From Patescibacteria group bacterium (GTDB lineage Bacteria > Patescibacteriota > Minisyncoccia > Phycocordibacterales > UBA9973), in assembly GCA_038061925.1 (NCBI GenBank), contig JBBTYD010000005.1:13477-77476 (forward strand): DNA of 64,000 bases. Reading direction: 5' to 3'. Every line of letters starts with the position of its first letter. Position 1 is the first letter of the stretch. This document shows positions 5,623-40,169 of this stretch, piece by piece. The position numbers were made by a program, and so were the translations under genes. Under the pieces are notes generated by a model. That model did not search any database and was not told the DNA's origin. It saw only the letters and a program-made list of their open reading frames with translations.

Positions 5623-5760
5623 TTAGAAAGAATATTTATTCAACCAAATAACCAGCATAAGCATTATCATAGGCCTTGACAATGATGCTGTAGGCAAAGG
5701 CGGAACTTATTAATGTTAAGATAAGAAAATACACTAATGTTTTATTAATTCTGTACATTG

Positions 5761-5833
5761 TGCGCCCGGTTGGGATCGAACCAACGACCTTATCCTTAAA
5801 AGGGATCTGCTCTACCAACTGAGCTACGGGCGC
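5761..5833 (-). tRNA. tRNA-Lys (anticodon UUU)
   Basis: The reverse complement folds as a cloverleaf: acceptor GCGCCCG/CGGGCGC, D-arm GCUC-AGUUGGUA-GAGC, anticodon loop CUUUUAA, T-arm GUUGG-UUCGAUC-CCAAC, discriminator A. CCA is not encoded. Confidence 0.85.
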
Positions 5834-5894
5834 ATAATCTCATTCAAACATAAAATATATACGAAATAAGCCTAAAAATCAAGATAAAATACAA

Positions 5895-6551
5895 CTAAAA
5901 AACTTTTAGTAAAAACTGTTCGAAAACCGCTTCCGCTTCAATTCCAACTTTGCGAGCTTCAGGCAAAAGGTAACTTAATTTGGAAATTAAATTTTTAAGT
6001 TCGGATGCGGAGAATTTGCGAAAATTTTTTTTTATTATCAGATCTTTTATTTTCCAAAAAAGAACGCCAATGAGCTCTTCCATTCCTACACCCTTATCCA
6101 TCGCCTGCCGAAAATAAATCCACATATTTAACTTGTCTTTCTTTTCAAAAGCGTTCGCGATTAAAAAATTATCAAATTTCTCTCTTTTTTCTTTGGGTAA
6201 TTCAAATATATTAAGCTGAAGTCTCTGGGGAGTAATTTTTTTAAAAACATCTAATATAGGTTTATTCAACTTGCCTTCTAGAAATATAAAAGAATTAACT
6301 GATTCGGCCATTAATTTTAACTTATCTAGAACAAAATCCCTTGTTTCCTCAAATTCCAAAATATTTTGAAAAACCACTCTGGATAACGGAGAAAAAAGAC
6401 TGGCGCCGGAATAAAAGCTTTCAATCTGAATCAGATTAAAATCATTCCTATTTATAAAAAAAAATTCCGCGCCGGCTGGAGCAGACTTTATGAATTTCTC
6501 ATAAGAGAGAAGTTTATTGTTAGCGTCATCGCCACTAAAAAGATATAACAT
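5895..6551 (-). CDS. Hypothetical protein, weakly DNA polymerase III delta (HolA)-like
   Basis: The N-terminus MLYLFSGDD resembles the HolA start, but the protein is only 218 aa and there is no strong motif support. Confidence 0.3.
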   Translation of the reverse strand: MLYLFSGDDANNKLLSYEKFIKSAPAGAEFFFINRNDFNLIQIESFYSGASLFSPLSRVVFQNILEFEETRDFVLDKLKLMAESVNSFIFLEGKLNKPILDVFKKITPQRLQLNIFELPKEKREKFDNFLIANAFEKKDKLNMWIYFRQAMDKGVGMEELIGVLFWKIKDLIIKKNFRKFSASELKNLISKLSYLLPEARKVGIEAEAVFEQFLLKVF

Positions 6552-6562
6552 AAATTTTTAAA

Positions 6563-7054
6563 TCAAAGCTTGACTTGCTTTTTATATTCTAAATAAGGGG
6601 TGCCGTATTTCTCGGTCAGGATTCTTTCCTGCTCGTTTAAAAACACAAACTTAGCAATAATAAAAGCAACCAGAACAAACAAAATCACAAAAAGAGCATT
6701 GGCGATGATCCCAAATCCTAGCATTAAGAAAAAAAGACCCCAATGCGTCGGACTGCGAGTATAACAATATGGTCCTTGGCAGAAAGTTTCTTTGCTTATA
6801 TTTTTTGTTTTTAAATCTCGCGAAGTCTTTTGCGCCCAAAGAATCAGAAAACTGGCAAGTACCAATAAAATAATACCTATTGGTGTCATAATGGAGTTTG
6901 AAAAAATTTTAAATTTAAAAATACTATCAAGATAGACACCGATTAAGAATAAAATAAAGCACAGAGTATACGAATGCGCTAAAATCTTATGCACTTTGCT
7001 TTTAGGGAGGTTTTCTTTATCTGAAACCTGTTTTATTTCATTATAAGTTTCCAT
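6563..7054 (-). CDS. Isoprenylcysteine carboxyl methyltransferase / phospholipid methyltransferase family membrane protein
   Basis: Multiple TM helices. The C-terminal segment RSPTHWGLFF...EQERILTEKYGTPYLEY matches the ICMT/PEMT signature RHPxY...EE..L...FG..Y..Y. Confidence 0.6.
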   Translation of the reverse strand: METYNEIKQVSDKENLPKSKVHKILAHSYTLCFILFLIGVYLDSIFKFKIFSNSIMTPIGIILLVLASFLILWAQKTSRDLKTKNISKETFCQGPYCYTRSPTHWGLFFLMLGFGIIANALFVILFVLVAFIIAKFVFLNEQERILTEKYGTPYLEYKKQVKL

Positions 7055-22157: not shown

Positions 22158-23255
22158 TCACCTATTCATCGGCATAATGAGATAAATAAATGACGAATCA
22201 GAAACTGGAGATATGACTAACGGGCTCGATGCCCCGGAAAATCTGATGGACATACTATCGGTGGTGATTGACTGGAAACAATCTAAAAAATATTTATAAT
22301 TAAAACCAAGCTCAATATTTTCTCCTGTTAGAGCCGCATCCAAATATGTTTTATTTTCTCCAATATCATTATTAGCAGATGATAGTTCAAAAATTTTTTC
22401 GGGTGGAGTAATTTTTAAATTGACTTGGTTAAATTTATCAGAAAAGATATTAGAAATTTTAAGCGCATTTAGTAAATCTTGCTTGAGCACTACAGCATTA
22501 GTCTCCGAGGTTTTGGGAATAATCTGACGATAATCGGGGAAAACTCCATCAATTACCCGGGAAGTCAGATAAACATTATTGGATGAAAAAGAAATTTGGT
22601 TTTTATTAAAACATACTTTTAAGATGGACGAAGACTCCCCAAAAACTTTCAGTATTTCTGAGATATTTTTAAAGGGGATAAGGATCCTGAGAGTTTCAGG
22701 AAGTCCTTTTATTTTAATTTTTTTCTCCGCTAACCTAAAGGAATCAGTAGAAACAAATACTAAATTGTCTTCGTGGGCATACATAAAAACACTTGAAATT
22801 TCGGGCTTTATATTAGATGGAGAGGAGCTGTAATAAACCGATTTTATGCCATCTATTAATTTTTTTGATTCTATTTCAAAATTCATTCCAGAAACTATCG
22901 GAATTGTCGGAAAATCATCATATGGCTGACCTTTTAATTTTATCTTGCTTTTTTTTGTTTGGATAATTAGATTACCATCAGCGCTTTCAAGATAAACATT
23001 TTCATTTTGAAAAACATTAGAAAAAACACCATTTAACACACTTCCAGAAATAGCCAGGATTCCTTCTTTTTCTATTTTGGCGGGAATTTCAACTTCAATC
23101 CCAAGACTTAAATTTGTAGATCGAAGTTTTAAAGACTTACCAGAAGCAACTAAAAGAATTGAACTTAAAACAGGCAGGGTTAAATTCTTACCTGTAATTC
23201 TTTCAACTTGGAAAATTTTGTTTTTTATCTCTTCAATTTTGCATTCTAATTTCAT
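22158..23255 (-). CDS. dnaN: DNA polymerase III beta sliding clamp
   Basis: 365 aa with the DnaN N-terminus MKLECKIEEIKNKIFQVERITGKNLTLPVLSSILLVA and a three-domain length. Immediately downstream of dnaA. Confidence 0.85.
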   Translation of the reverse strand: MKLECKIEEIKNKIFQVERITGKNLTLPVLSSILLVASGKSLKLRSTNLSLGIEVEIPAKIEKEGILAISGSVLNGVFSNVFQNENVYLESADGNLIIQTKKSKIKLKGQPYDDFPTIPIVSGMNFEIESKKLIDGIKSVYYSSSPSNIKPEISSVFMYAHEDNLVFVSTDSFRLAEKKIKIKGLPETLRILIPFKNISEILKVFGESSSILKVCFNKNQISFSSNNVYLTSRVIDGVFPDYRQIIPKTSETNAVVLKQDLLNALKISNIFSDKFNQVNLKITPPEKIFELSSANNDIGENKTYLDAALTGENIELGFNYKYFLDCFQSITTDSMSIRFSGASSPLVISPVSDSSFIYLIMPMNR

Positions 23256-23301
23256 ATATGTTTATATCTCTTATATATAATCTATTATTATTATTATACA
23301 G

Positions 23302-23429
23302 GTGGATAAGTGGATAAGTGGATTTAATTATTATAACATATGTTTATTTTTAATGATTTTAATTTAATTAAATGGTAATAAAACATTACTTATCCACTTT
23401 GTTTAATTTTTTAATATTTTTTATCCACA
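23302..23429. promoter_or_regulatory. DnaA-box cluster between dnaA and dnaN (oriC region)
   Basis: Tandem GTGGATAAG at 23302-23310 and 23310-23318 (reverse complement CTTATCCAC), TTATCCACT at 23390-23398 and a perfect TTATCCACA at 23421-23429, in an AT-rich 196-bp intergenic region. Confidence 0.6.
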
Positions 23430-23451
23430 ATTTTTTTTAACTTATTAGTAG

Positions 23452-24792
23452 TCATTTGAACATAATTCTTATCTGTTCTAGTTCTTGGGATAATTGTGGG
23501 TCATTTTTCAGGTCTGCTTTGATTTTTAAACATGAATGAATAACGGTGGTATGATCCTTCCCGCCAAGTTTTTGTCCAATTAAAGGATAGGACACATTAA
23601 AATCTTCTCGTAGCAGATACATCACTATTTGTCTTGCCTTCACTATTTCTTTTTTTCTAGTTTTCTCGTAAATCGAAGACTCGGCCAGCTGATAATGTTC
23701 ACTTACCACCTTTACAACATCTTTTATAGCGATACTTTTCTTTGGTTTCAGGTTATTCTTTAATAAATTTTTAACTTCAAAAAGCGTTAAAGGTCTATTT
23801 TTTAAACGGTATTGACAAACTATAATATTTAAACTTCCTTCCAGTTCTCGGATATTGCCATCTACCAATCCGGCAATATATTCCAATAAATTTTCTTCTA
23901 AATCAACATTAAGCTCTTGTAATTTCACTTTCAAAATCGCCAGACGAGATTCATACTCTGGTTCAGATATATCTACTATCATACCAGCGGCAAAACGAGA
24001 TTTTAAACGGTCGGCTAGTTCTGGGATATAGTTGGGATGTTTATCAGAAGAAAAGATAATCTGTTTATTGTTTTCATGAAAAGTGTTAAAAGTATGGAAA
24101 AGTTCTTCTTGAATTTTTTCCATTTTGCCAATGAATTGAATATCATCAATGATTAAAAGATCATATTTTCGATATTTTTCTTTAAAAGAATTTGCTTTAT
24201 TATTTTGCATTGAATTGACAAAATCATTGGCAAATTTTTCCAAAGTCATATAATGCACCTTTTTATTTGGATATTTCTCTTTGATGGAATTTCCCACTGC
24301 TTGAATCAGATGGGTTTTGCCGAGTCCCGTTCCCCCATAAATAAAAAAAGGGTTATATTTAGTGCCCGGACTGTCTATGATTGCTTGAGAAGCGGCATAG
24401 GCGAGTTCATTAAAAGATCCCACAATAAAGGAGTTAAAATGATAACGTGGGTTTAAGTTATCTTCGGGATTTATATAAAGATCTTTTAGAGGAAGTTCCT
24501 TATTTACATAGGTTTCGTTTTTTACTATCTCTTCCTTGTTATTTTCTATTTTAACAATAGTATATTCTACTGCGCGCATATTTTCATAGGCATCGGCTAT
24601 AGTTTTGGTGATCAGTTTATGATATTTATTTATAAGCCAATCACGAACAAATTCATTTGGCACACCGATATAAATAATACCCGTGTCTTCTTTAATGATC
24701 GATGTATTTTTAAACCAAGTGCTGAAATTTGCCTTAGATATACCCGTCTCGATTTCAACCAAACAATTTTTCCAAAGTTGCTTTGTATTCAT
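23452..24792 (-). CDS. dnaA: Chromosomal replication initiator protein DnaA
   Basis: AAA+ Walker A GGTGLGKTHL, Walker B LLIIDDIQF, and the C-terminal DNA-binding signature GQKLGGKDHTTVIHSCLKI. Confidence 0.9.
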   Translation of the reverse strand: MNTKQLWKNCLVEIETGISKANFSTWFKNTSIIKEDTGIIYIGVPNEFVRDWLINKYHKLITKTIADAYENMRAVEYTIVKIENNKEEIVKNETYVNKELPLKDLYINPEDNLNPRYHFNSFIVGSFNELAYAASQAIIDSPGTKYNPFFIYGGTGLGKTHLIQAVGNSIKEKYPNKKVHYMTLEKFANDFVNSMQNNKANSFKEKYRKYDLLIIDDIQFIGKMEKIQEELFHTFNTFHENNKQIIFSSDKHPNYIPELADRLKSRFAAGMIVDISEPEYESRLAILKVKLQELNVDLEENLLEYIAGLVDGNIRELEGSLNIIVCQYRLKNRPLTLFEVKNLLKNNLKPKKSIAIKDVVKVVSEHYQLAESSIYEKTRKKEIVKARQIVMYLLREDFNVSYPLIGQKLGGKDHTTVIHSCLKIKADLKNDPQLSQELEQIRIMFK

Positions 24793-26876: not shown

Positions 26877-28223
26877 TTATTTGAGTTCTAATTTCCAAAG
26901 AAAAGAATCTTTTTTATTTATAAAAAATAAATAGTTTTCACTTTCATCTAAAGAAAGTTTTACACCATCAACCTCTTCCCCTCCTGGAATGGCCACTGGA
27001 TCGGCGAGCATTGTTCCATTTCCAGTTTTAACATCTATCTTCCAAAGTTGATCGCTAAAAGACACTTCTCCTTGATACCAAGTATCTGGATATAGACCTA
27101 CATCAACTGACTTTGGCGTAGCGCAATAGACAGTATCGCTCCCGCGCGCCCAAACACATTTTTCGGGTAGAGTTTTTATTCCCAACACATCTGAATTTCT
27201 CGTATCTAGGTGATAAACGCCAAGGGATAAATTATTCGATGCATTATTTCCACCATAAAGAATTAGTTTTCCATTGGGACTTTCGAGAGTGGTTAATCCA
27301 TTTATATTACCAAAAATTTTACTTAAATTTTTTCCAGCAGAGTCCATTGTGTACATATGCCCGGGAATACCCGCAGAAGGTTTAGTAGAAAGAGTGATTG
27401 TGTTACTATTCGGCCAAAATGATAGCCATTCAGTAAAAGGAGAATCCAGTATCTGTGTTTTTTTATTATTTAGAAAGTTTAAAATTATTCCAATCATATC
27501 ATTTCCACTGTCAAACAAGTAAAATACTTTTGAAGTATCGGGGGATATGCTTATATCTTTAACATTATTGGGCAAGAAAGATCCCTTAATTTCATTATTT
27601 TCGGTTGTATCTCCTCCTAATAATTCCTTCGGAAGAGTTCCGATAAAAGTTTCTATTGTTTGGTTGTCGGATTTTAAATATCGCATAATCACTGATTCCC
27701 CGTGGTTGCCAAAATAGCTATCGTATACTTTTGGGATTAGTGTGCTTGAGAACTTCCTTTCTTCTATCTTATCTGCGAAAGTTTGGTAAATATTTCCAGT
27801 GGCTTTATCCACATATCTCAAAGCGGGCTTAAATTCGGTTGGTGGCCGAGTCGGTTTTACGGTCTGTTTTTTAATATTTGCCGCAGGAGGGGTGGTGGTT
27901 GGCGTGGCGACCGGTATTTCCATTTCCTTCAGTCTTTCTTTTGCAAAAACCGTAAATCCCGCTATGGGCATAGTTGAAACTTTCGTTAATTTGACAGCTG
28001 GTGTTTCTGTTGCGGGAAGAGGTATATTTGATATATTAATTGGAGGTTTTACAGAGGCAGGTGTTAATTTCGCCCCAAATGGATTAAATTGCGAGAGAAA
28101 ATTTATGCCTGTTTCGTTGTCAACGGGCACCATTGTCCCCGGTCGGAAATATAAAAATCCAAAAATCGCAATTACTGTTAAAATCAAGATTATTATTAAA
28201 AGTATAAAATTTCTTTTGGACAT
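26877..28223 (-). CDS. Membrane-anchored extracytoplasmic protein with a Pro/Thr-rich linker and a predicted beta-propeller-like domain
   Basis: N-terminal TM (ILLIIILILTVIAIFGFLYF), then a P/T-rich spacer, then a beta-rich domain with PD40/TolB-like strands. No catalytic motif seen. Confidence 0.4.
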   Translation of the reverse strand: MSKRNFILLIIILILTVIAIFGFLYFRPGTMVPVDNETGINFLSQFNPFGAKLTPASVKPPINISNIPLPATETPAVKLTKVSTMPIAGFTVFAKERLKEMEIPVATPTTTPPAANIKKQTVKPTRPPTEFKPALRYVDKATGNIYQTFADKIEERKFSSTLIPKVYDSYFGNHGESVIMRYLKSDNQTIETFIGTLPKELLGGDTTENNEIKGSFLPNNVKDISISPDTSKVFYLFDSGNDMIGIILNFLNNKKTQILDSPFTEWLSFWPNSNTITLSTKPSAGIPGHMYTMDSAGKNLSKIFGNINGLTTLESPNGKLILYGGNNASNNLSLGVYHLDTRNSDVLGIKTLPEKCVWARGSDTVYCATPKSVDVGLYPDTWYQGEVSFSDQLWKIDVKTGNGTMLADPVAIPGGEEVDGVKLSLDESENYLFFINKKDSFLWKLELK

Positions 28224-28231
28224 AAATTTTA

Positions 28232-28723
28232 TTATGGAAAGGGTGATGTAATTTTATTTGTATTTGAACCAGAATTAGGTACTTGGAATGGAGCAACTGT
28301 AGGCGGAGTTGAAGTGGTTGGAGTGGAAAGAAGCGGTTCAATATCACTCCTAAGCAAGTCTGGATTTATTGTAAAAAGAAGCGCATAAGCACCAAGGGCG
28401 ATAAGAAGTCCCAAGATTGCCCCCATAATCCTTTTTTTGCCAGCTTCTTTATTCCCCGGTAATTCGCTTGTCATATATTCTAATCCACCCACCACAATCA
28501 TTACCACCGACAAAACCGCGCATAGGCCGATAAATAGTTTTATCATTGGGTTCAAATAAGCGCCTAGGCCACTCATGGTATCAACATTGCCTTGGCTATC
28601 GCCAACAGCAGGCAGTGGAGCCAAAAGATGATAGTTTGAAGTTTCCGCGTTTATTTCCAACATTGGACCAAAAAGTCCGATTAGAATGATGATTATTAAA
28701 ATATATTTTTTGTATTTCATCAT
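28232..28723 (-). CDS. VirB2/TrbC-like type IV secretion pilin candidate
   Basis: A signal peptide is followed by two hydrophobic helices (MIKLFIGLCAVLSVVMIVVGGLEYM and IMGAILGLLIALGAYALLF) separated by a short charged loop. This is the VirB2/TrbC topology. A P/T-rich tail follows. Confidence 0.4.
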   Translation of the reverse strand: MMKYKKYILIIIILIGLFGPMLEINAETSNYHLLAPLPAVGDSQGNVDTMSGLGAYLNPMIKLFIGLCAVLSVVMIVVGGLEYMTSELPGNKEAGKKRIMGAILGLLIALGAYALLFTINPDLLRSDIEPLLSTPTTSTPPTVAPFQVPNSGSNTNKITSPFP

Positions 28724-28731
28724 ATATTAAA

Positions 28732-29727
28732 TTAAAATTCTATGTTTATTTCTTTGCTTGTCGTCTCAAAAATTTTGTTTTGATTGTCAATCTGCAATTT
28801 TAAGACAGATGTTCCGGAAGCTCCCTCTGGCGCTTTAAGCGGCATTAAATTTTTTTTAAAGCCCGTTAAATTTACCAAACTGTCGTTAATGAACCAGCTC
28901 CAGATTAAGGTCGGATTTAATATTTCTTTTGGTGAAATAAAATAAGGTATTGCCTCTATTATCTCACTGCCTTGTATTTTATAAGAATTAGTCAGTGTTT
29001 TCTCCCAAATTGTTCCAAAGGAATTGTCGTTTTTATAAAATAATATTTTCGGCTCGGTCATTCCGATGTCGATACTTGCTTGACTTGAATATTTTTGGTC
29101 CACCGTTCTGGCGGTCACTGATATATTATTGGAATTTTCCAAATAGTCATTTGTGAAGATAAAGAAATTTTTACTATAACCTGAATTGTCTTGCGAATTG
29201 GTATAATCTTTCTTCCAGGCATAAATCATATTTTTGGGATCAGCCAGCGTATTGTTATTAGGAGAACCAGTTCTTATTTCCGGCATAGTCACCACTTTTA
29301 CTTCACTATCGGGTGTGGGCAAGGCTTTGCCGCGGTAAAACGGCGGGACATAAGAATCATTCGCTTGCCAAAGCAGTGTCATCACAGAAGGTCTGATTGT
29401 TATTTTTTCGTCTATCGCGCCGTCTGGTAGAGATATTGTGGCTATTACACTTGTTTCTTCACCAGCCGCCGGTGCGGTGGTTAAAAATGACTTTTTACTA
29501 ATTCCAGATAGAACAGTTTTGCCATTTACCGACCAAGATATTAAAACACTATCCAAGTTATAGACATAACTTTTTAAATTAATAGTTGTATTTTCGTATG
29601 GAGCTGGATTGGGAGGAACTATATTTACCAATATACTGTTGGACGAGTCCGCATTTACCTTTAGCGCGAGACTTCCGAATATCAGAACTATTATGATTAA
29701 ATATAACGATAAGAATTTAAATCTCAT
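28732..29727 (-). CDS. Secreted hypothetical protein (signal peptide), part of the T4SS-like cluster
   Basis: N-terminal signal peptide with ...LKVNA|DSS. Beta-rich with no recognisable enzymatic motif. Confidence 0.4.
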   Translation of the reverse strand: MRFKFLSLYLIIIVLIFGSLALKVNADSSNSILVNIVPPNPAPYENTTINLKSYVYNLDSVLISWSVNGKTVLSGISKKSFLTTAPAAGEETSVIATISLPDGAIDEKITIRPSVMTLLWQANDSYVPPFYRGKALPTPDSEVKVVTMPEIRTGSPNNNTLADPKNMIYAWKKDYTNSQDNSGYSKNFFIFTNDYLENSNNISVTARTVDQKYSSQASIDIGMTEPKILFYKNDNSFGTIWEKTLTNSYKIQGSEIIEAIPYFISPKEILNPTLIWSWFINDSLVNLTGFKKNLMPLKAPEGASGTSVLKLQIDNQNKIFETTSKEINIEF

Positions 29728-29778
29728 AGTTTAATTGTACCATATCCGCTTTATAAACTTACCAATTTTTTTTGTTTT

Positions 29779-31641
29779 TCACTTTGCGACTATTTCTCCT
29801 GCCTCTTGCTCTTCTTTTGCTTTTCTGTTTGATAGTATTTGGGAAGGATCGCTAGTGATAATTTGGTCTTCGGTATACGAAGAAATAATTTTTATGGCAA
29901 CATGTTTTAATCCTGCAAAGAATATGCCCTCCCCCACACTTGATTCTAAAAGAAGATATTTTTCTTCATCCGTAAGATTGAAAGTTTTTTGCAAGATATC
30001 AATTGTCGTGGGTGATTGTTTCAGCAAGAGCTGGATAGAAGAGTTCGTGATTATTGGCACACCATAGGGAGATTTCATAAAATCTGCCGCGTCTTGAGTG
30101 ATCGTGGAAAGACCTAAATAATATTTTCTGCTTCTTTTGGCGATCGAATAGAGAAAAGAAGCGGTATCTTCAGATTTCATCATCCACCAAGCTTCGTCGA
30201 TAACTAGTAAGCGTTTTTTCAAGTTTTTGCGTATCGCGTTCCATATATAATGCATAATTATATACATGGCGATCGGTTTAAGTTCATCTTCCATATCCCG
30301 AACAGAAAAAACAACAAACTTTTTATTTATATCCACGTTACTTGGTCTGTTTAAAAATGTTGCCCAAGAACCCCTGGTGTATTTTACCAATCTCTGCACG
30401 ACGGAATCGCTTCCATCCATTCCCGAGAGCACCATTTCAAAATCTGAAAGCAGAGGAGGCTCAATATTTGAAAAGTCTGATTCCGGAGTGATGTCTTTCA
30501 TGGCATAAGTTTCGGAAATGGCTCGATCAACCATCGAATCTTCTTCAGGGGTGAGTCCTCCCAACATCAATCGGAAAAGTCCGACCAGATTAATGATGTT
30601 TGAACGCAAAACATCTTCGGCTGTTTCATCTTCGCGCGGGATTGGCAAATCAAAAGGGTTTATATGATGGTCGGAAGAAAGAGAAATATTAAAATATCGT
30701 CCACCCACTGCACCCGCCAAGAATTCATATTCTCGTTCCGGGTCTATGACTATCACATCAACCTCAAACATTAAAGATCTTAAAATTTCCAATTTTGTCG
30801 CATAAGATTTTCCAGAGCCTGATTTGGCAAAAGTTACCGAGTTGTAATTTTCTAGAGAAAATCTGTCAAAGATAACCAAGCTTGAATTATGTCTATTGAT
30901 GCCATAAAGCACGCCTTTATTATCGGTCAAGTCGAAAGAGATGAACGGAAAAACACTGGAAAGTGGTTCGGAGTTTAATTTTTGATGAATATTCAGCAAA
31001 TCATTATTTGTCGGGATGACACTTTTAAAACCAGCTTCTTGTTGGAAAAGCGCTGGTTTGATGTAGATTAGTTTTGATTCAAGCATCGATTTTATTTCAT
31101 TTTCAATTTTAAAAAGCTCTAAATCATTATCAGCATAAATTGTGATATAAATACCCACATCAAACATTTTTTCCTGCGCTTGAATTAGACTGTCGCGTAA
31201 CCCCTCGAGATCTTGATAAGCAGTGTCCAGCACCGGGTCGCGCACCATACCTTTGGTTGCGCGCGCGCTTATTTGACTTTGCACTTCCGCAACTTTTTTC
31301 TGGAATTGTCGCAATATCAGCGAGGTGTCTATCGGGTGAATAAAGATTGAAATATCAAAAACTTTATCCAAATTGATTATCGGGGAAAACCAATTGTCCG
31401 TTAAAAATCTAGGGTAAGATATTATGAAAAACGTGCGGGCGATTTTATCGCCTAGGTTTAAGGATTTTGACTCAATTTTGAGCGCCGATGGCGCAATGAC
31501 ATCTTGGAGTTCCAGACTGGCTGACTCGTATATTTCTTCTGGCGTTATCGCCAAAATGGAAGCTTGCGTCTCATTAGGATAAGCGTTTTCCTTATTTGAC
31601 TGCGTATTTTTTTTTCCAAATAATTTATTTAAAATTCCCAT
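29779..31641 (-). CDS. VirB4/TraE/TrsE-family type IV secretion ATPase
   Basis: VirB4 N-domain pattern (LGDKIARTFFIISYPRFLTDNWFSPIINLDKVFDISIFIHPID), Walker A FAKSGSGKSY, Walker B region VIVIDPEREY and a C-terminal conserved block. Confidence 0.8.
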   Translation of the reverse strand: MGILNKLFGKKNTQSNKENAYPNETQASILAITPEEIYESASLELQDVIAPSALKIESKSLNLGDKIARTFFIISYPRFLTDNWFSPIINLDKVFDISIFIHPIDTSLILRQFQKKVAEVQSQISARATKGMVRDPVLDTAYQDLEGLRDSLIQAQEKMFDVGIYITIYADNDLELFKIENEIKSMLESKLIYIKPALFQQEAGFKSVIPTNNDLLNIHQKLNSEPLSSVFPFISFDLTDNKGVLYGINRHNSSLVIFDRFSLENYNSVTFAKSGSGKSYATKLEILRSLMFEVDVIVIDPEREYEFLAGAVGGRYFNISLSSDHHINPFDLPIPREDETAEDVLRSNIINLVGLFRLMLGGLTPEEDSMVDRAISETYAMKDITPESDFSNIEPPLLSDFEMVLSGMDGSDSVVQRLVKYTRGSWATFLNRPSNVDINKKFVVFSVRDMEDELKPIAMYIIMHYIWNAIRKNLKKRLLVIDEAWWMMKSEDTASFLYSIAKRSRKYYLGLSTITQDAADFMKSPYGVPIITNSSIQLLLKQSPTTIDILQKTFNLTDEEKYLLLESSVGEGIFFAGLKHVAIKIISSYTEDQIITSDPSQILSNRKAKEEQEAGEIVAK

Positions 31642-31645
31642 AATA

Positions 31646-32296
31646 TTATTCCAATTTTATCTTTCCTTCCACTTCTCCCGGATTGAAAACTTTATAAAAT
31701 ACTTCCACAATCTCTTCGGTGCCCAATTGAGCTGATTTTATGCCACAGCGACTAAGTCCTTGTTGAATTACGCTCACTCTTTCTTCCAGTTGAGATCTCT
31801 TTTCCTCAAAGTCTTCTTGATTGGCTATCTTTGCCTCGGCTTTATTTTTTCTCTTGAATAAATTTTTGAATATCCCGGGAAATATCCCGGAATCTGATTT
31901 TAAAACAGTATGGGTATAAGGAACCACGACAAAAAAGCTTTTTGTCATTATACTCACTGACTCGGTAAAATTCCTAATAAATTCTATATATTCTTTTGTC
32001 TGTAATTTAAGCAAAGGTTCGTTTTGCACTTTGGCTCTATCTTCTAAAAGCAAAATATAAGGTCGGATGTCGAGCCTTCTACTTTGCACTGATATTTGAA
32101 TAGTAAAATCCAAAGTATTGAGAAAACTTTGGAATTGAAGAATAGTCGCTTTTTGTTCATCGTCGGACTTTAAAGACAGGTTGACTGAGTTGGCGAGCAC
32201 GATTGCTCGCAATCCGCCGTCTTTCAGCACGATTACTCCATCGCGAACCTCCTTGATGGGAACAAATTCTTGAGTTGCTTTTGCGTTTAATGCCAT
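31646..32296 (-). CDS. Detached VirB4-N-terminal-like protein (216 aa) immediately upstream of the VirB4 ATPase gene
   Basis: ATQEFVPIKEVRDGVIVLKDGGLRAIVLANSVNLSLKSDDEQ resembles the extreme N-terminal segment of long Gram-positive VirB4/TrsE proteins. Its stop lies 4 nt before the ATG of the 620-aa VirB4 ORF. Confidence 0.45.
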   Translation of the reverse strand: MALNAKATQEFVPIKEVRDGVIVLKDGGLRAIVLANSVNLSLKSDDEQKATILQFQSFLNTLDFTIQISVQSRRLDIRPYILLLEDRAKVQNEPLLKLQTKEYIEFIRNFTESVSIMTKSFFVVVPYTHTVLKSDSGIFPGIFKNLFKRKNKAEAKIANQEDFEEKRSQLEERVSVIQQGLSRCGIKSAQLGTEEIVEVFYKVFNPGEVEGKIKLE

Positions 32297-32307
32297 ATTA
32301 TTTGATA

Positions 32308-32739
32308 TTATTTACCGTCCATGTGCTTGTTTAAATCTAATATGTCCAAGCTCCAAGCCAGATCCCGCAACTTATTTCCGCCCAGCCTGGCTTGATTTTC
32401 CAGCATTTCTCTTTTATTGTTTTCATTTGAAATTTTTAATTCTTCATTTTTGATTGTATTTTTGCGTCTTTTCCAAATATAAAGCTTGCTCTGTAAAATG
32501 TAATTAAATCCCGCTTCAATCATATTGATAAAAGGTTTATTATTTGGTCGATAACGAGCCAGGGCTATCGCCATACCCGCCACCGCTAAAATTGGGATCG
32601 CGCCAAAGAAGAGTCCTAGCAGTTTATAAAGTACAAAGCATAAGCCGGCTCCACCCGCCAAATAGACAAACTCTTTGAAAGTGAATGGGCCAAAAATTTT
32701 GTCTTCTATATCTAAAAATTGTGGTACTTTGAATTGCAT
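32308..32739 (-). CDS. PrgI/VirB3-like small membrane protein
   Basis: MQFKVPQFLDIEDKIFGPFTFKEFVYLAGG with two TM helices. It sits directly upstream of VirB4, as PrgI/VirB3 does. Confidence 0.45.
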   Translation of the reverse strand: MQFKVPQFLDIEDKIFGPFTFKEFVYLAGGAGLCFVLYKLLGLFFGAIPILAVAGMAIALARYRPNNKPFINMIEAGFNYILQSKLYIWKRRKNTIKNEELKISNENNKREMLENQARLGGNKLRDLAWSLDILDLNKHMDGK

Positions 32740-32751
32740 ATTTATTATTTT

Positions 32752-33426
32752 TTACTCGTCTGGTGATAGACGATACGGATCTCTCTTGGGCGGGTAGGAA
32801 GATGGCGGGGTTGTTTTTGTGATATTTTCCAGAGAATGTTCTGTTTTGACTATCGGAATTTGAACAGAAGCGGATAATTTTTGCGTTAAAATGGTGTCTG
32901 GTTTTTCTATTTTTTTTAGCATTTCTTCTCTACTTACATCAAAAGGAACACCGGCTGGCATAATTTCTGGAAACAGTTCTCTCTTCTCAACAATCTCAAT
33001 GCCGGCTTTATTTAGAATAGCTAGATCGCTTTTTGTTTGGGTGGCGGAATCCTCTTTAGGTGTTTGGATGTCTGAATCTCTTTGAAATATTTTTTTTCTT
33101 TCAATATTTTTAACTAATTCTTCTCGTATCTTTTTAAAAACCAGATCATTCATTTCATTTATTAATTCATTTACCGCTACTCCGGAAATTTTCATCCGTT
33201 TTTCTAATTCCCCTGGATAATTTTCTGGGCTAACAAGCCCAGAGAGCAATAACTCCGTTTCAAGCTCGAGGTCGCCTAATTGCTCAAAGGTATATCCCTT
33301 TTTTTCTCGCAGTCCCAAGATAGCCATTTTCCAATCAACCGCGTCAATCGCATTAACGGTTTCCAGCGAAAGTCCCCTTTTTGCTTTTTCTATTTTTATT
33401 TTTAACGAATCTACTGTATCATCCAT
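32752..33426 (-). CDS. Acidic hypothetical protein, paralogous to the next ORF
   Basis: Shares the block AI..(V/F)DW..MA...G.......E...(L/F)..ET.L.L.GL......L.......A.KI.GEVN..IF with ORF 33436-33924. Confidence 0.4.
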   Translation of the reverse strand: MDDTVDSLKIKIEKAKRGLSLETVNAIDAVDWKMAILGLREKKGYTFEQLGDLELETELLLSGLVSPENYPGELEKRMKISGVAVNELINEMNDLVFKKIREELVKNIERKKIFQRDSDIQTPKEDSATQTKSDLAILNKAGIEIVEKRELFPEIMPAGVPFDVSREEMLKKIEKPDTILTQKLSASVQIPIVKTEHSLENITKTTPPSSYPPKRDPYRLSPDE

Positions 33427-33435
33427 AATTTTTAA

Positions 33436-33924
33436 TTATATTACTAAATTGTCTTTTATGCTTTTGGGAGTTGGTAAATTCGTGGACGTTTCTGAGGTTT
33501 CGAATGGTTGATTCTCGCTTTCTTCTATAAAAGCGGAGTAATTTCCACCCGAAAGAATGAAATTAAGCGTTTGTTCCGGGCTTGGATTTTTATTTTTTAG
33601 ATTTTTCTTAATATTTTCTTCTATAAGGTTGCTTATTGGAGTAAATATTTTTTGATTAACTTCTCCAGTAATTTTAATTGCTTCGTCCTTACTGGTTCCC
33701 ACATTATTTTCTATATTTAGCGCGTATAAATTTCCATCTTCTAGACCTACTAGAACTAGCAGAGTTTCCACTTGAAAATCATTTATTTCACTTTCCGAAA
33801 GTAAATATTTTTTTCCTATCTCTTCCGCCATACTTCCCCAATCAAAAGTATTGATTGCCTCTTGCGTTTCTTTGGGCAATTTCAGCACTTCTTCTTTAAT
33901 TGTTTGTTGCAATTTTTCGGTCAT
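33436..33924 (-). CDS. Acidic hypothetical protein (paralog of 32752-33426)
   Basis: Same conserved block as the neighbouring ORF (FDW...ETLLVLVGLEDG...KITGEVNQKIF). No signal peptide. Confidence 0.4.
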   Translation of the reverse strand: MTEKLQQTIKEEVLKLPKETQEAINTFDWGSMAEEIGKKYLLSESEINDFQVETLLVLVGLEDGNLYALNIENNVGTSKDEAIKITGEVNQKIFTPISNLIEENIKKNLKNKNPSPEQTLNFILSGGNYSAFIEESENQPFETSETSTNLPTPKSIKDNLVI

Positions 33925-33936
33925 ATTTTTTAATTT

Positions 33937-36024
33937 TTAATGTCTTTCTTCTTTTGTTCCACTATCTAATTTTGCCTCCATTCTTATTTTTTGAGATGCT
34001 TCTCTTCTTTCTCTAGCGCCGAAACTATAATTATAACTTTTTCCTTTAAATTTAAATCCAATTTTACCCCCCTTTTCTATTCTTTCAGCATAAGCCCATT
34101 TTCTTTCCCTATTTTCTTTTACCACTTCATTTTTCGTATATGGAATTACCTCATTTTGCATTTCCTTTATAGTTTTTCCATTATTTACACCCCCTACTAC
34201 TGTTATTCCCGTTACTCCTGTTTTAATCTTATTTTTTTCGTCGTTTAGTGCTTTAATTTTAGCTATTGCTGTTGCTTCTTCTGGTGAACCGGATTTAGTA
34301 TCGAGTTTTTCTTGCCTTGCGCCGATTAAGTCTTTGTCTATTCTTTCAAAATCTTTTGCAACTTTATTTAATAATCCTTGCAAGTCTTGTTCTGCAGTGT
34401 TTACTGCTTGTTTTAACGGCTCATCCTCTCTCACCTCAAGCTCTTTGGCTCTCGCTTGTCGCTTTTTAACTTTATCAGCTCTGGCCTTTTCATATCCGCC
34501 TTCTTTAACTCCTAATCCAATTGCTTTTGATGATTCCAAGTTTAATCCACCCGCTTTAGCCAAAGCTCCAACGCCTTTTATGTTTCTCATGTCAAAAGAA
34601 GCCTTGGAACCATAATCTGCCGTTCTAAGAGCCATTCTGCCGGCAATTCCTTTTAATCCAGTTTCTTTTGCCGCATCCTGTAATCCCTTGCTACTTGCCG
34701 CCTTGGAGGCTAATCCTCCAATTCCAGAGGTCAAAGCTAATGCCGTTCCACCTGTTGCCGCGCCCAAGGCGAGACCTCCCGCCATCTTTGCGCCCTTCAT
34801 TATCATCTCTCCAAACTGACCCCCTCCCTTTTTGGCGAACTCAGTTGCCTTAAGAAGTAGAGCCATTATTACTATTGCCGGTATTAAGATACCCAAAATA
34901 GTCCCTAATATTGTTTCTGTATTTCCTCTGCTAAAGCTGGATATGTGTGGCAATATTTTAAATATTAGAAAGATAAAGAACATAAAAATCGACGCCATAA
35001 ATGACGTTGAAATTAAACGCTTAAACCAAGCATCCCATCCCAAATATTCGACACCGGCCAGTTTTGGCACAGTCCAGGACATAAAAGCAAAAGGAGAGAA
35101 TATAATTAATACCCACAGCTCAATCAATCTTCCTATAAACATAAGGCCGGCGATAAAAAACGCGTAAGCGGCCCAAAGCATAATTGCTCCGGCAATTATC
35201 ATTATTCCAAGTGTTAAGGAAAAAGGAAGCCGGTCCTCTTTTACAGTTTTACCTTCAATTGTTGTTGTTTTTAGCAGTTTTATAGTTTCTAACGTCATTA
35301 ATTTAGTGGCATCAAAATTTTTCCACATCGCGCCAGCTATATCTTTTCCATCTTTGAGTGCTGGATCTTTTGGCCTAGATGTTCCATCTGCATTTTTTGT
35401 GTTGACATCCAGGTTATTATAAAAAATTAACGCTAAGATGTTGGAAGAATCAATTACCACCTTAGTAAAAAACATAGAAAAGTTTATGAGCAAAGCTATA
35501 ATTACCACTCGAACTATTATTTTTTTTGTCTCGTGGCCCAGTCCCAAAATTGTTTGAATGGCTACATAAAGCAAAATAAGTATAAAGAAAATATTAGAAA
35601 AATCACGAACGACTCCCCAAGCGGCGGGAATAAAATCTGAGGCGCTTGTCACAGAGCTGTCTATTCCAAGATCGATCATAACATCAAAAAACTGCGCTGA
35701 TAGCCAAAGCACCCAACTAGGAAGCTGAAAAGTAGTGTAATAAAAAACCAATAACAAGCATCCATTAAACCAAGTCCAAGGCGATACACCGCAACCATCA
35801 ATAATCTCCTTTTTAAAGGGATCATTTCCCAAGGTGGCGGCAGCGGATGCCGCCTCTTTTTCTGCCGCCGCTTTATCCGCCACTTTATCCGCCGCTTTTT
35901 GTTCTGTTGTTCTTGTGTCTACTCCATATCCTATCTGCGCATTCACTCTTAACATCGGACTAAAAAGCCCGACCAAGATAATCAGTATCAAGAAATATGG
36001 AATTATTTTTTTTATTTTTTTCAT
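33937..36024 (-). CDS. VirB6/TrbL-like polytopic membrane protein with a long Gly/Ala-rich, coiled-coil C-terminal region
   Basis: Signal peptide, a large extracytoplasmic loop, at least 6 TM helices, then G/A-rich repeats and a charged coiled coil. Confidence 0.45.
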   Translation of the reverse strand: MKKIKKIIPYFLILIILVGLFSPMLRVNAQIGYGVDTRTTEQKAADKVADKAAAEKEAASAAATLGNDPFKKEIIDGCGVSPWTWFNGCLLLVFYYTTFQLPSWVLWLSAQFFDVMIDLGIDSSVTSASDFIPAAWGVVRDFSNIFFILILLYVAIQTILGLGHETKKIIVRVVIIALLINFSMFFTKVVIDSSNILALIFYNNLDVNTKNADGTSRPKDPALKDGKDIAGAMWKNFDATKLMTLETIKLLKTTTIEGKTVKEDRLPFSLTLGIMIIAGAIMLWAAYAFFIAGLMFIGRLIELWVLIIFSPFAFMSWTVPKLAGVEYLGWDAWFKRLISTSFMASIFMFFIFLIFKILPHISSFSRGNTETILGTILGILIPAIVIMALLLKATEFAKKGGGQFGEMIMKGAKMAGGLALGAATGGTALALTSGIGGLASKAASSKGLQDAAKETGLKGIAGRMALRTADYGSKASFDMRNIKGVGALAKAGGLNLESSKAIGLGVKEGGYEKARADKVKKRQARAKELEVREDEPLKQAVNTAEQDLQGLLNKVAKDFERIDKDLIGARQEKLDTKSGSPEEATAIAKIKALNDEKNKIKTGVTGITVVGGVNNGKTIKEMQNEVIPYTKNEVVKENRERKWAYAERIEKGGKIGFKFKGKSYNYSFGARERREASQKIRMEAKLDSGTKEERH

Positions 36025-36039
36025 TGATAATTAATATCC

Positions 36040-38295
36040 TCAGTATCCATTTACTGTAATCGGAATGGTGAGGATTGTTGGGGATGGTGACGAATCTTTG
36101 ACTACAACTTTAGTAGTTCCATACGCAACGCCTGTGACTGTGATGATGTCGAGCTTAAGGCCGGTAATTGTGGCGGTTGCCACGTTGGTATCCAGTTGAG
36201 AAGGAGTTTTAATGGTATAAGGCGCTACTCCGCCATAGGCGCCACCAGTTATGAGCGTATTGATCGTTTGTCCAACACCGACTGATAACGAGACAGGCGA
36301 TGTTATTGTAATGTTAGTGCTAACAATTGCCGCTGATGACGAATCTTTGATCAAAATTGCCGATTGACCTTCGGTGAGACCGGTGATTTGGAGAATATCA
36401 TCAACAATTTTGCTTGTTATCATTGCGGTATTCAACTCTTCTTTAATACTGTAGGGTTTTACACCGCCCGCTATAGGCACATTGATTGTTTGTCCGACCC
36501 TGACTGAAACATTTTGTGGAATGGTTAAGTCTTTGGGACCAATTACGATGATCTCGATCCTGACAGTTTTTACTGGATTGGAAGAATCATTTATTTCTAC
36601 ATAAGTCGAACCCGACGCGACACCGATAATAACCAAGCTTGTGTCGGAAAAGGCTACCACCGCTTTTGTTTCATCGGGACCTGTTTTCATACTATAGTTC
36701 CCTGCACCGCCGGATATGGTTACAGTCTTTGACTGGCTAACACCAATTGACATATTTAGCAGATGGGTAGCTCCATTAGCCAACAATGCTCCTATTTCAT
36801 TTACTGTGACACTGACAGTGACAGTTTTTGCGGGTATCGATGAATCGTAAACCGTGACTGTGACCGGAGTGGTGGTTGGCGTGTTAAGGGCAGTGATTAC
36901 GAGTTTTGGACCAGAAGAGTTAGAAACATCAATCGTGGCAATCGCTTTTGTTTTTGACGCGTCTGATTGGATTATATAGTAAGGCGCTTTGCCGCCAGAT
37001 ATATTTGTACTAGTTCCTTGTTGGACCCTGACTGAAACATTTTGCGGAATATTCAAAACTCCGTCTCCGCCTGCGGTAGTAGCGCCAGATAACGTAGTTG
37101 AACTGTTAAGAGTAACACTGCCGTTATAGCTCCAATTGTTGTTTTCTGAGGCTGATGGATTTACGGTGCTTGCGAGCGCATTCAAACCTTTATTCAAAAA
37201 GTTATTTATTAGTGCGTCAAAAATAGCAGAAAGACTATTACCCAGTGCTGCGCCTAGCTCCGTTTGTCTTAAATTGGATCCTAACGCGTCCATTATTTGA
37301 TTTCCCACTACTGTTCCGGGAGTTGTACTCACTAAACCGCCCGGACAAACATTGGGGCCGGTTGGATTACTCCAGGCGGCTCGCGCGGCCTCCTTATCAG
37401 CGTTATATTTGTTATTATAGGCGTCTATGCCTTTATCGTCAGTCACGGCTGGTTGCGGGTTAGCGGCATCCCAGGTTTTATCATTAAATTTAAAACTTGG
37501 TTTTAAAAATTCATTTATGCCATTGTTATAATTCGGATTGCTTGGACAAATTTGGGGAGACAAGAAACCCATACTTTGTTGAAGCAGGGATTGTATTTTC
37601 TGTGCTGGCGCCATTAATGTTCCTTCTAGCCGGCTTGCCAGATTCTGCTGGATAATCATATTAAATCCGAGATAATTATTTTGTGGATATTGCGTATTGA
37701 TTAAAAATCCGTTCCACCCTCCGTAGTTAAAATCATTTCTAAAGCGGACAAGCAAGCGAGGATCATTTATTACCTTAGACAAACTGTATTGCGCATTATA
37801 TGCGAGCTGACTTTTATAACTAGATATTACATTGAGTGCGGTTTGTGGACCGAAAGGAAATCTAAAAGTATCATAGCCGATCATATCCACTAATCTCCTA
37901 ATTTCAGATTTGGCGATATCCCTAAAGAAAGATTCCGGATTTTCTATAAAGAGAGGTGAACCGTGGAAATCGGAATTAATCCAATTAATAGTGGCTTGAG
38001 TTATTCTCGCTAAGACTGATTTTGCGATTGTCATAAGAATTTGACGAAGGAGAAAGTTTGCAAAATCTTTTAAATGGAGACTCGTGTTTACTACCGTTGA
38101 TGGTACACCTATTGCGTGGAAAGCTTTAGATATCCAGTTTCCGATTGAGTTAATCGTGCTTACATTAGTATTAGCCACATCAGTAACTGGTAGTTGCGCT
38201 CGCGCTCTTTCTGGTATAGATAACAAAACAGAAGGCAATACTATTAAAACAATCAAGAGAGCGGAGATGAATTTTATTGTTTTGTTGTTAACCAT
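36040..38295 (-). CDS. Large secreted surface protein (751 aa) with four C-terminal Ig-like repeats
   Basis: Signal peptide (ISALLIVLIVLPSVLLS). The N-terminal alpha/beta domain has no known catalytic motif. Four repeats of about 90 aa each carry the motif (I/P)xGG.xPY.I(K/Q) ... (V/I)TG(L/V). Confidence 0.45.
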   Translation of the reverse strand: MVNNKTIKFISALLIVLIVLPSVLLSIPERARAQLPVTDVANTNVSTINSIGNWISKAFHAIGVPSTVVNTSLHLKDFANFLLRQILMTIAKSVLARITQATINWINSDFHGSPLFIENPESFFRDIAKSEIRRLVDMIGYDTFRFPFGPQTALNVISSYKSQLAYNAQYSLSKVINDPRLLVRFRNDFNYGGWNGFLINTQYPQNNYLGFNMIIQQNLASRLEGTLMAPAQKIQSLLQQSMGFLSPQICPSNPNYNNGINEFLKPSFKFNDKTWDAANPQPAVTDDKGIDAYNNKYNADKEAARAAWSNPTGPNVCPGGLVSTTPGTVVGNQIMDALGSNLRQTELGAALGNSLSAIFDALINNFLNKGLNALASTVNPSASENNNWSYNGSVTLNSSTTLSGATTAGGDGVLNIPQNVSVRVQQGTSTNISGGKAPYYIIQSDASKTKAIATIDVSNSSGPKLVITALNTPTTTPVTVTVYDSSIPAKTVTVSVTVNEIGALLANGATHLLNMSIGVSQSKTVTISGGAGNYSMKTGPDETKAVVAFSDTSLVIIGVASGSTYVEINDSSNPVKTVRIEIIVIGPKDLTIPQNVSVRVGQTINVPIAGGVKPYSIKEELNTAMITSKIVDDILQITGLTEGQSAILIKDSSSAAIVSTNITITSPVSLSVGVGQTINTLITGGAYGGVAPYTIKTPSQLDTNVATATITGLKLDIITVTGVAYGTTKVVVKDSSPSPTILTIPITVNGY

Positions 38296-38347
38296 AAATT
38301 TGTAACATTATTATAACCTGTATTAGCCCTAGAGGGGAGTCCTGCTC

Positions 38348-39271
38348 CTACTGCTGGGATAATAATTTTTGGTTGATTGCGCTCATAAGATTGTCAACTT
38401 CTGAATCTAATTTGGTCATGTTTTCTTCGTATTTACTTATGCCGCCCAAAGCCATAATAGTGTCGCTGTCATAAAGTTTTATATCGCTTATATTTTCTAC
38501 TAATCTCTCTAACGAGTTTACAACATTTAAATGCAAGGTTGAAACAGATTGTGGCACAGTCATTTTAACCATGCCCTCTACCACTTTTTTCGTTTGTTCG
38601 ATAATTGGATCAAGTTTTACAAGCACGCTGGAATCGACAGTATTTTCATCAACCATAAATTTTTGCAGTACATCCAATACCGTATAATCCATTGCCGGAT
38701 ATTTTTTTTGAAGGCTGTTGAAGGTATTGATATAATTTGTGAAAGTTTTAACGCTGTCGTCACTTGTTGTTTTTATTTCGGAAATTAAAAACACTTTTCT
38801 TGGCGGAGAATTTTGAATCTTGTCTGCCAAAGAAGCGCTCAGTGCGTCTATCGTTGCTTGATCCATAGGCCCATTTTGGCTGGCGGCTGCTACAGTCGCG
38901 AAAAGTTCTCTAGAAAATTTGTCTGTCTGTGTCAAGTTTTCTTTCCCCTGATTATCTCTATTTTCCAGCAAGGGTAGTCCTTGCTGGTTCTGTTCTGTTT
39001 TTGATTTTAATTTACCTATGGCGACATTGTCCGGTGTCCCGGGAGCTGTTTCTTTCTTAGTCGGATCGAGTCCATATAAACCTTCTTCCCAATCCGGTAT
39101 TCCATCGCCATCGGTATCTTTATTTACTAAATCTTTTATTGTCACATTATCATAAGTTAAGCTATTTTCTTGATTAACCGATTGATATGTTTCCTTATTT
39201 TTAAATACGGAAGTTGTTTTTAGAAGAAAAAGCGCGACAACAAAAACCACCGCCAAAACGATCCAAAACAT
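38348..39271 (-). CDS. Membrane-anchored protein with a calcium-binding-like DTDGDGIPDWEE motif
   Basis: N-terminal TM, a DxDxDGxxDxxE motif (thrombospondin-type-3 / dockerin-like), then an alpha-helical domain. Confidence 0.4.
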   Translation of the reverse strand: MFWIVLAVVFVVALFLLKTTSVFKNKETYQSVNQENSLTYDNVTIKDLVNKDTDGDGIPDWEEGLYGLDPTKKETAPGTPDNVAIGKLKSKTEQNQQGLPLLENRDNQGKENLTQTDKFSRELFATVAAASQNGPMDQATIDALSASLADKIQNSPPRKVFLISEIKTTSDDSVKTFTNYINTFNSLQKKYPAMDYTVLDVLQKFMVDENTVDSSVLVKLDPIIEQTKKVVEGMVKMTVPQSVSTLHLNVVNSLERLVENISDIKLYDSDTIMALGGISKYEENMTKLDSEVDNLMSAINQKLLSQQ

Positions 39272-39335: not shown

Positions 39336-40169
39336 CTAGTTTTTTGAGTTTATAGTATCATTTCCTGGATAAAAATTCAGTTTAGCCAGCCCAATCCAGT
39401 CTTGAAGTGATAAATTCTCCGCTCTTTTGTTTCCCAAAGATGTCAAAGTGTCTCTTTGACATACCTCTCTTAGATTAGATGAGAGCTTTTTTCTTTTGTG
39501 CGCAAAACCTGTTTTTACTATTTTCCAAAACTCTTTTTCGTTTATCTTATTGTTTTCAAAAATCCCCCGAGAAATATTTTTTATGGCAATTATGGCCGAA
39601 TTTACCTTTGGCGCCGGAGAGAAATATCTTTTATCAACCTTGGCAACCATTTTTGGCTTTCCATATGCCTTGACGGAAATAGATAAAAGGCTCTCTTTAT
39701 CATCGCGCGCGAGTATTCTTATTGCCACTTCGTGTTGGATCATTAACACCATAAGTTCTGGCTGATGTTTTTCTGTCAGGAACTTTTTCAAAATCCCGCC
39801 AGTAATATTGTAAGGAATATTAGCGATAATTTTATAGGTTCTAGTTTCTAGGTTAGGAGCACTAATATTGAATTTCAAAATATCATCGTGTATTAGCACA
39901 AGAGAACGTTTCTTTATTTCTCTTTCAAATTTAATTTTTAAAAATTCAAAAAGCTCGCGGTCTTTTTCTACAGCTATTACTAGCCCTTGTTTTGCCCCGG
40001 CGAAATGAATGTTTTCTAAAAGCTTGGATGTCAGCGCGCCTTTTCCTGGTCCAATTTCTAAAATTATATCATCGGGTTTTATTTCTCCCGCTTCAATTAT
40101 TTTTCGGAGAACAATTTCCGATTTTAAAAAATTTTGCCCAAGTGATTTTTTCGGTCTCATATGGGTCAT
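39336..40169 (-). CDS. ksgA: 16S rRNA (adenine1518/1519-N6)-dimethyltransferase
   Basis: KKSLGQNFL, the SAM motif EIGPGKGALT and NIPYNI. Confidence 0.85.
   Translation of the reverse strand: MTHMRPKKSLGQNFLKSEIVLRKIIEAGEIKPDDIILEIGPGKGALTSKLLENIHFAGAKQGLVIAVEKDRELFEFLKIKFEREIKKRSLVLIHDDILKFNISAPNLETRTYKIIANIPYNITGGILKKFLTEKHQPELMVLMIQHEVAIRILARDDKESLLSISVKAYGKPKMVAKVDKRYFSPAPKVNSAIIAIKNISRGIFENNKINEKEFWKIVKTGFAHKRKKLSSNLREVCQRDTLTSLGNKRAENLSLQDWIGLAKLNFYPGNDTINSKN

Follow-up and report, generated by a model that had tools for sequence, protein, structure and literature searches.

Is a virB4 gene that is read as two open reading frames (ORFs) a damaged gene, or are the two ORFs genes in their own right? 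The question is raised by a locus on the minus strand of a 64,000-nucleotide (nt) stretch of DNA from a Patescibacteria group bacterium (assembly GCA_038061925.1, contig JBBTYD010000005.1), the whole of which is here called the window and supplies the positions given below. An ORF of 216 amino acids (aa; 31646..32296, stop codon TAA) is followed by one of 620 aa (29779..31641) encoding a VirB4-family ATPase from which, compared with full-length VirB4, the first ~180-200 residues are missing. An initial annotation, made from the sequence of the window alone, had reported that the first ORF ends 4 nt before the ATG of the second, and both the coordinates and the junction were reproduced: the intergenic spacer tatt (31642..31645), read directly from the sequence, separates the TAA of the upstream gene from the ATG of virB4 in the order ...AAA TTG GAA TAA tatt ATG GGA. 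That annotation had left three explanations side by side, namely a genuine two-subunit arrangement, a nonsense mutation leading to a pseudogene, and a sequencing error; the first of these stands and the other two do not. Very probably, both ORFs are genuine genes that are translated separately and belong to a chromosomal type IV secretion system, the upstream, TrsD-like one encoding a detached N-terminal subdomain of VirB4 and the downstream one encoding the rest. Homology, tiling of the two products along full-length VirB4, conservation of the split in relatives, purifying selection and gene context are the basis for this conclusion, and from it we infer a complex of the two products.

The motifs quoted in the initial annotation were all found in the two ORFs. 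In the 620-aa ORF these include Walker A (AKSGSGKSY, residues 272-280; 30802-30828) and Walker B (LLVIDEAWW, residues 478-486; 30184-30210), and in the 216-aa ORF ATQEFVPIKEVRDGVIVLKDG (residues 7-27) and LKSDDEQ (residues 42-48). The longer product matches the Pfam family P-loop_TraG (PF19044, E=1.3e-24) as well as AAA_10 (PF12846) and DUF87 (PF01935), and among NCBIfam models it scores 363 bits against NF045971 (conju_CD1110), exceeding the cutoff of 325, over profile positions 181-733 of 752; it does not reach the cutoffs set for TIGR00929 and TIGR02746, which are proteobacterial models. Its sequence also matches solved structures, PDB 4AG5 (the C-terminal domain of VirB4) with E=3.3e-39 and TrwK with E=4.9e-8. 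The N-terminal domain is thus not complete in this polypeptide, the missing part being encoded by the upstream ORF, and the 620-aa product is the second part of the VirB4 N-terminal domain together with the P-loop motor.

Three NCBIfam models are matched by the 216-aa ORF, in each case at the N-terminal end: the TrsD/TraD model NF041427 at positions 15-142 of 201 (E=1.9e-6, 27.9 bits), the mycoplasma VirB4 model NF045975 at positions 102-233 of 894, and the CD1110 VirB4 model NF045971 at positions 2-74 of 752. When an alignment of the small-ORF family (A2) was compared with TrsD of pSK41 by hhalign, residues 8-202 aligned collinearly with residues 34-217 (E=6.6e-5, 21% identity). The 'TraC-like' family PF26593 is among the precomputed matches for an identical database protein (P0001), for all top homologues and for the N-termini of the fused proteins described below; the local Pfam scan did not return PF26593, and its sole match for the 216-aa ORF, a sub-threshold one to LETM1_RBD, was taken as noise. 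Comparison of the sequence with solved structures gave chance-level matches only (adenylate kinase, E=0.36; CPE0426, E=1). The protein has no hydrophobic segment and is soluble, and it lies between a VirB3-like gene and virB4, as does the stand-alone soluble protein of ~200-230 aa in the TrsD/TraD layout. That VirB3-like gene (32308..32739, minus strand) encodes a small membrane protein of 143 aa of the PrgI family (Pfam PF12666, E=8.6e-8, 33.1 bits against a cutoff of 27) with a hydrophobic segment from residue 27, and it ends 11 nt before the start of the TrsD-like gene. The database holds at least 7979 homologues of the 216-aa protein; the best 120 are all 211-217 aa long and 84-100% identical, and their named sources are Patescibacteria (Nomurabacteria, Parcubacteria, Paceibacterota). 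As far as sequence comparison goes, the 216-aa protein is a remote homologue of the TrsD/TraD family and stands alone as the counterpart of the ~200 residues with which full-length VirB4 begins. The resemblance to the N-terminus of long VirB4 proteins that the initial annotation had proposed is therefore beyond chance, as the NCBIfam matches, a BLASTP alignment with a fused Patescibacteria protein (P0234; E=2e-46) and the hhalign alignment with a Clostridium VirB4 (E=3.8e-7) all indicate.

If the two products together make up one VirB4, they should tile it without overlap, and this was found on each of the references used. Of the 797 residues of P0234, 1-213 are covered by the 216-aa ORF at 38% identity (the BLASTP alignment cited above) and 230-797 by the 620-aa ORF at 55% identity. 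On the VirB4 of Clostridium botulinum pCDC3875, likewise 797 aa long and annotated as belonging to the CD1110 family, the small-ORF family profile aligns with residues 23-201 (hhalign probability 93%) and the 620-aa ORF with residues 201-796 (BLASTP E=9e-85); and on the NF045971 profile the intervals given above for the two ORFs do not overlap. The alternative that the 216-aa protein duplicates a region that the ATPase also contains does not apply, as nothing in the first 250 residues of the ATPase is similar to the small-ORF profile. A paralogous relationship with the ATPase's own N-domain was likewise rejected, hhalign returning a probability of 0.3% and an 11-residue, low-complexity match (IFKNLFKRKNK with ILNKLFGKKNT). 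In P0234 the Pfam family TraC_F_IV matches residues 169-394, across the split point, with 27.2 bits, just under the cutoff of 28.1; since the match straddles that point, it suggests that the cut falls within the N-terminal region of TraC/VirB4 as Pfam defines it.

Might the two pieces nevertheless be the remains of a single ORF, broken by an error of sequencing or assembly, a frameshift or a recent pseudogenising mutation? Fused versions of ~790 aa do exist in other Patescibacteria and in Firmicutes, and metagenome-assembled genomes (MAGs) do contain errors: in two of the relatives' loci virB4 is disrupted by apparent frameshifts (L021, about 4640-6470; L065, about 4650-6410), and a run of Ns produced one apparent ATPase of '600 aa'. 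The junction itself, however, speaks against such damage. The ATG of virB4 lies 7 nt past the first base of the TAA, which places the two ORFs in different frames, the ATPase being in the +1 frame relative to the 216-aa ORF, and upstream of its own ATG the frame of the ATPase is open for only 5 codons; a single nonsense mutation cannot explain this arrangement. Moreover, a protein identical to the 216-aa ORF has been recorded from 6 contigs. Promoter and terminator scans around the junction gave the counts expected from shuffled sequence and were uninformative.

The state of the locus was compared in relatives, of which 80 species-representative genomes were fetched, 78 of them with a usable ATPase match. 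Two separate ORFs are present in all 78, and in every one the ATPase begins at an ATG of its own; in the 71 loci that contain the whole ATPase ORF, its length is 611-636 aa. The stop codon that ends the small ORF varies (TAA in 61, TAG in 15 and TGA in 4 of the 80 loci), as does the spacer, which ranges from -8 to 130 nt (median 13.5). In 20 sampled loci the small gene had a nonsynonymous divergence (dN) of 0.05-0.17 and the ATPase one of 0.05-0.11, far below synonymous divergence (dS), which was above 1 or saturated; strong purifying selection acts on both genes, and the arrangement as two genes is ancient and itself subject to selection. A single fused ORF in relatives, which the initial annotation would have read as a sign of error or decay here, was seen in none of these 78 close relatives, and the fused relatives are distant ones, a clade of the Colwellbacteria type. 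We therefore consider it extremely improbable that the split is an artefact or the decay of a gene that is normally one ORF.

The same comparison bears on programmed recoding, in which bypass of the stop codon combined with a frameshift would yield a fused VirB4 from both ORFs. The spacer of only 4 nt and the +1 frame of the ATPase at this locus would suit such an event. However, no frame and no spacer length is conserved among the relatives, in which all three relative frames occur (35, 25 and 18 of the 78 loci), many spacers hold unrelated palindromic inserts, and every ATPase ORF has its own ATG. Recoding is for these reasons as scarcely credible as damage; the conserved split, the varied spacers and frames and the purifying selection lead us to reject sequencing error, pseudogenisation and programmed recoding alike. 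The palindromic inserts are of at least three unrelated kinds and lie between the TrsD-like gene and virB4, at about 4640-4770 of each locus (L003, L005, L011, L012 and L060; L010, L017, L019, L026 and L046; L007 and L039). One kind is a hairpin, CTAGGCAAGACCTAAC..GTTAGGTCTTGCCTAG, and the others are elements of 110-130 nt with long inverted arms. They could be elements resembling repetitive extragenic palindromic (REP) sequences or miniature inverted-repeat transposable elements (MITEs), or RNA hairpins by which the expression of one gene is adjusted relative to the other; the presence of unrelated inserts in several spacers marks this as a true intergenic region.

Two separately translated genes being thus the preferred explanation, it may be asked whether their products act as one. 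Among the 150 best cluster representatives (50% identity) of the small protein's homologues, all but the fused P0234 are 114-443 aa long, which leaves no room for an ATPase, and there are evident fragments among them. A search with P0234 recovered a fused clade of at least ~115 clusters, 775-807 aa long, which carry both the PF26593 and the P-loop domains and whose named members are Candidatus Colwellbacteria, Parcubacteria and 'Patescibacteria group'; the identity to our two ORFs is the 38% and 55% given above for P0234. At its own locus (L086) the gene for P0234 directly follows prgI, near dnaA, and PrgI genes hold this position before the TrsD-like or VirB4 gene in L081, L082 and L086. Two members of the fused clade are ~600 aa long (P0289 and P0385); one of them, P0289, was considered as an independent fission and was rejected, the fused gene containing a run of Ns (L085, about 1545-1647) that makes it a scaffold-gap artefact. 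Both arrangements are also met in clostridia: VirB4 is fused in C. botulinum pCDC3875, and in Clostridium perfringens pJFP838A PrgI is followed by a protein of 312 aa and then by a DUF87 ATPase of 641 aa. Gene fusion is a classic indicator that the corresponding separate proteins interact, and the natural fusions are accordingly a strong argument for physical association of the 216-aa protein with the ATPase.

A structural model of an artificial concatenation of the 216-aa and 620-aa ORFs, aligned with the natural fusions (alignment A1), was made with AlphaFold2 (AF2). In Foldseek searches its best matches are full-length TrwK chains (8rtd/7o43), with E=2.4e-27 over about 900 alignment columns. 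The predicted local distance difference test score (pLDDT) falls below 50 over residues 210-257, a stretch made up of the small ORF's last residues and the ~41 with which the ATPase begins, with ordered domains on either side, so that the break maps to a linker that is predicted to be disordered or flexible. The AF2 models also show an order of secondary-structure elements that is common to the small protein and to ATPase residues ~50-210 (three strands, helix, strand, two helices, strand, helix, strand, helix), which suggests an ancient tandem duplication within the N-terminal domain of VirB4, as far as the predicted fold can tell; hhalign found no sequence signal for it.

Our working hypothesis is that the 216-aa protein would bind the ATPase non-covalently and so restore the complete VirB4 N-terminal domain in trans. 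In solved systems the N-terminal domains of VirB4 join each dimer's two protomers, are inserted in the inner membrane and touch VirB3 and VirB8; for PrgI, 1:1 binding to its VirB4 partner is predicted (PMC12857230). At this locus the product of the adjoining upstream gene, PrgI, would presumably serve as the VirB3-like partner. With a spacer of 4 nt, translational coupling would be possible in this genome, and spacers of up to 130 nt in relatives indicate that such coupling is not required. Several points weigh against this account as a whole. The 216-aa ORF does not reach the curated cutoff of 200 bits for NF041427, and the hhalign probability against pSK41 TrsD is only 64%, so that its placement in the named family is remote; in addition, the concatenated model has a predicted template modelling score (pTM) of only 0.55 and carries no inter-domain confidence for the putative complex.

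The main surviving rival is that the TrsD-like protein is an independent module, for instance a chaperone-like adaptor or an assembly or regulatory factor, with a stoichiometry or timing other than that of the ATPase. Some of its distribution would fit: TrsD homologues of Gracilibacteria are mostly not beside virB4 (PMC12102498), some stand-alone homologues have C-terminal extensions that bring them to 300-440 aa, and in some relatives hairpins in the spacer could make the expression of one gene independent of the other. In addition, on a haloarchaeal plasmid of Salinibaculum sp. KK48 (L083) the domain is joined to a different protein, where it forms the C-terminal end of a hypothetical protein of 1075 aa (1059-4286); a DUF87 ATPase of 843 aa (4328-6859) is encoded immediately downstream, and this arrangement is a third architecture of the TrsD-like module. 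Set against these observations, the natural fusions at the canonical VirB4 position and the tight linkage of the two genes in this lineage point to a constitutive 1:1 partner, and the scores for a chaperone fold, which are modest, may stem from the alpha/beta sandwich, a common fold. We regard an independent module as unlikely, and retain as the preferred explanation a detached part of VirB4.

In calling VirB4 split, the initial annotation could be taken to imply something unusual, which this is not: it is the standard TrsD-plus-VirB4 layout of plasmids of the pGO1/pSK41 type and of Patescibacteria (PMC12102498). The closest known systems are TrsD and TrsE of the staphylococcal conjugative plasmids pSK41/pGO1 (MPF_FATA, pGO1 subclass) and TraD and TraE of pIP501. 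In pSK41 the order is trsC, trsD (227 aa), a 14-nt spacer and trsE (672 aa), and the same order is found here with a 4-nt spacer, the PrgI-family gene occupying the position of trsC; common to both is a VirB3-like membrane protein, followed by a soluble protein of ~220 aa and a VirB4 ATPase of ~620-670 aa. Unlike those plasmids, the locus described here is chromosomal and lies next to dnaA, with VirB2-like pilin genes nearby, and the sequence similarity is remote. The CD1110-family VirB4 of C. botulinum pCDC3875 and TrwK/VirB4 of R388 are in contrast single polypeptides, whereas here two cover the whole protein. The 'TraD' of the pELF plasmid paper is a VirD4-type protein and is unrelated.

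From the chromosomal type IV secretion system that Patescibacteria carry (PMC12102498; PMC10633639) our locus, which is an instance of it, shows no substantive difference, and close homologues bear Nomurabacteria or Paceibacterota names. Quiñonero-Coronel et al. (2025; PMC12102498) rank TrsD, detected by means of CONJScan's TrsD profile, first in abundance among the type IV secretion components of Patescibacteria, usually beside virB4, with 2,272 homologues of which 1,664 are near virB4, and they state that it shares remote homology with the VirB4 N-terminus. For this homology they cite Guglielmini et al. (2014), in the main text of which the name 'TrsD' is absent; it may be in a figure or supplement. 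The two-gene arrangement of TrsD and VirB4 is thus already known (PMC12102498). The small addition made here is a sizeable, naturally fused clade within the same phylum, and a search of the text of PMC12102498 for mention of TrsD-VirB4 fusions gave none.

The wider setting agrees with this assignment. The two genes belong to a type IV secretion cluster of 11 co-directional genes on the minus strand (26877..39271), separated by gaps of 4-52 nt. Besides the genes already described, the cluster encodes a VirB2-like pilin (28232-28723; Pfam T4SS_pilin PF18895, E=5e-7) and a polytopic membrane protein of 695 aa without a Pfam match that is a candidate VirB6 (33937-36024). Four further genes, also without Pfam matches, encode products of 751, 307, 448 and 331 aa (36040-38295, 38348-39271, 26877-28223 and 28732-29727, respectively) with a signal peptide or an N-terminal anchor. 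Just downstream of the cluster are dnaN and dnaA (22158-24792; Pfam DnaA and DnaN) and just upstream of it ksgA (RrnaAD) and a UvrD-type helicase gene (39336-42250; Pfam), all on the minus strand. The genes for VirB4, TrsD, PrgI and a VirB2-like pilin are therefore clustered near dnaA and dnaN, as in the MPF_FATA-like system of Patescibacteria. Among the ORFs between 22158 and 43075 there was no Pfam match to relaxase or VirD4 families, and no search of the remaining window was made. The GC content of the window is 37%, and the window probably takes in the region around the chromosomal replication origin in a genome of the Nomurabacteria/Paceibacteria type. The locus is the origin-proximal chromosomal type IV secretion locus that has been described for Paceibacteria (PMC12102498).

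For annotation, it follows that 'TrsD-like / VirB4 N-terminal domain protein' is the proper label for the 216-aa gene, in place of 'hypothetical protein', and that to flag the 620-aa gene as truncated or pseudogenised virB4 would be wrong; given the disrupted copies in public MAGs, caution is advisable with short VirB4 calls in databases. The epibiotic growth of Patescibacteria depends on this type IV secretion system (PMC10633639), and PMC12102498, citing the transposon sequencing of Wang et al. (2023; PMC10633639), names a TrsD homologue as listed among the essential genes of Ca. Southlakia epibionticum. The occurrence of split and fused versions in one phylum provides a ready-made test of whether TrsD simply completes the N-terminal domain of VirB4. 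It is possible to speculate further that the split is functionally meaningful and not a neutral fission, in that the free TrsD-like protein, whose predicted fold also resembles type III secretion chaperones, would serve as a dissociable adaptor or assembly switch. We hold this to be doubtful; if it were true, fused lineages of the Colwellbacteria type and split lineages of the Nomurabacteria type would differ in how they regulate an essential type IV secretion system of the Patescibacteria.

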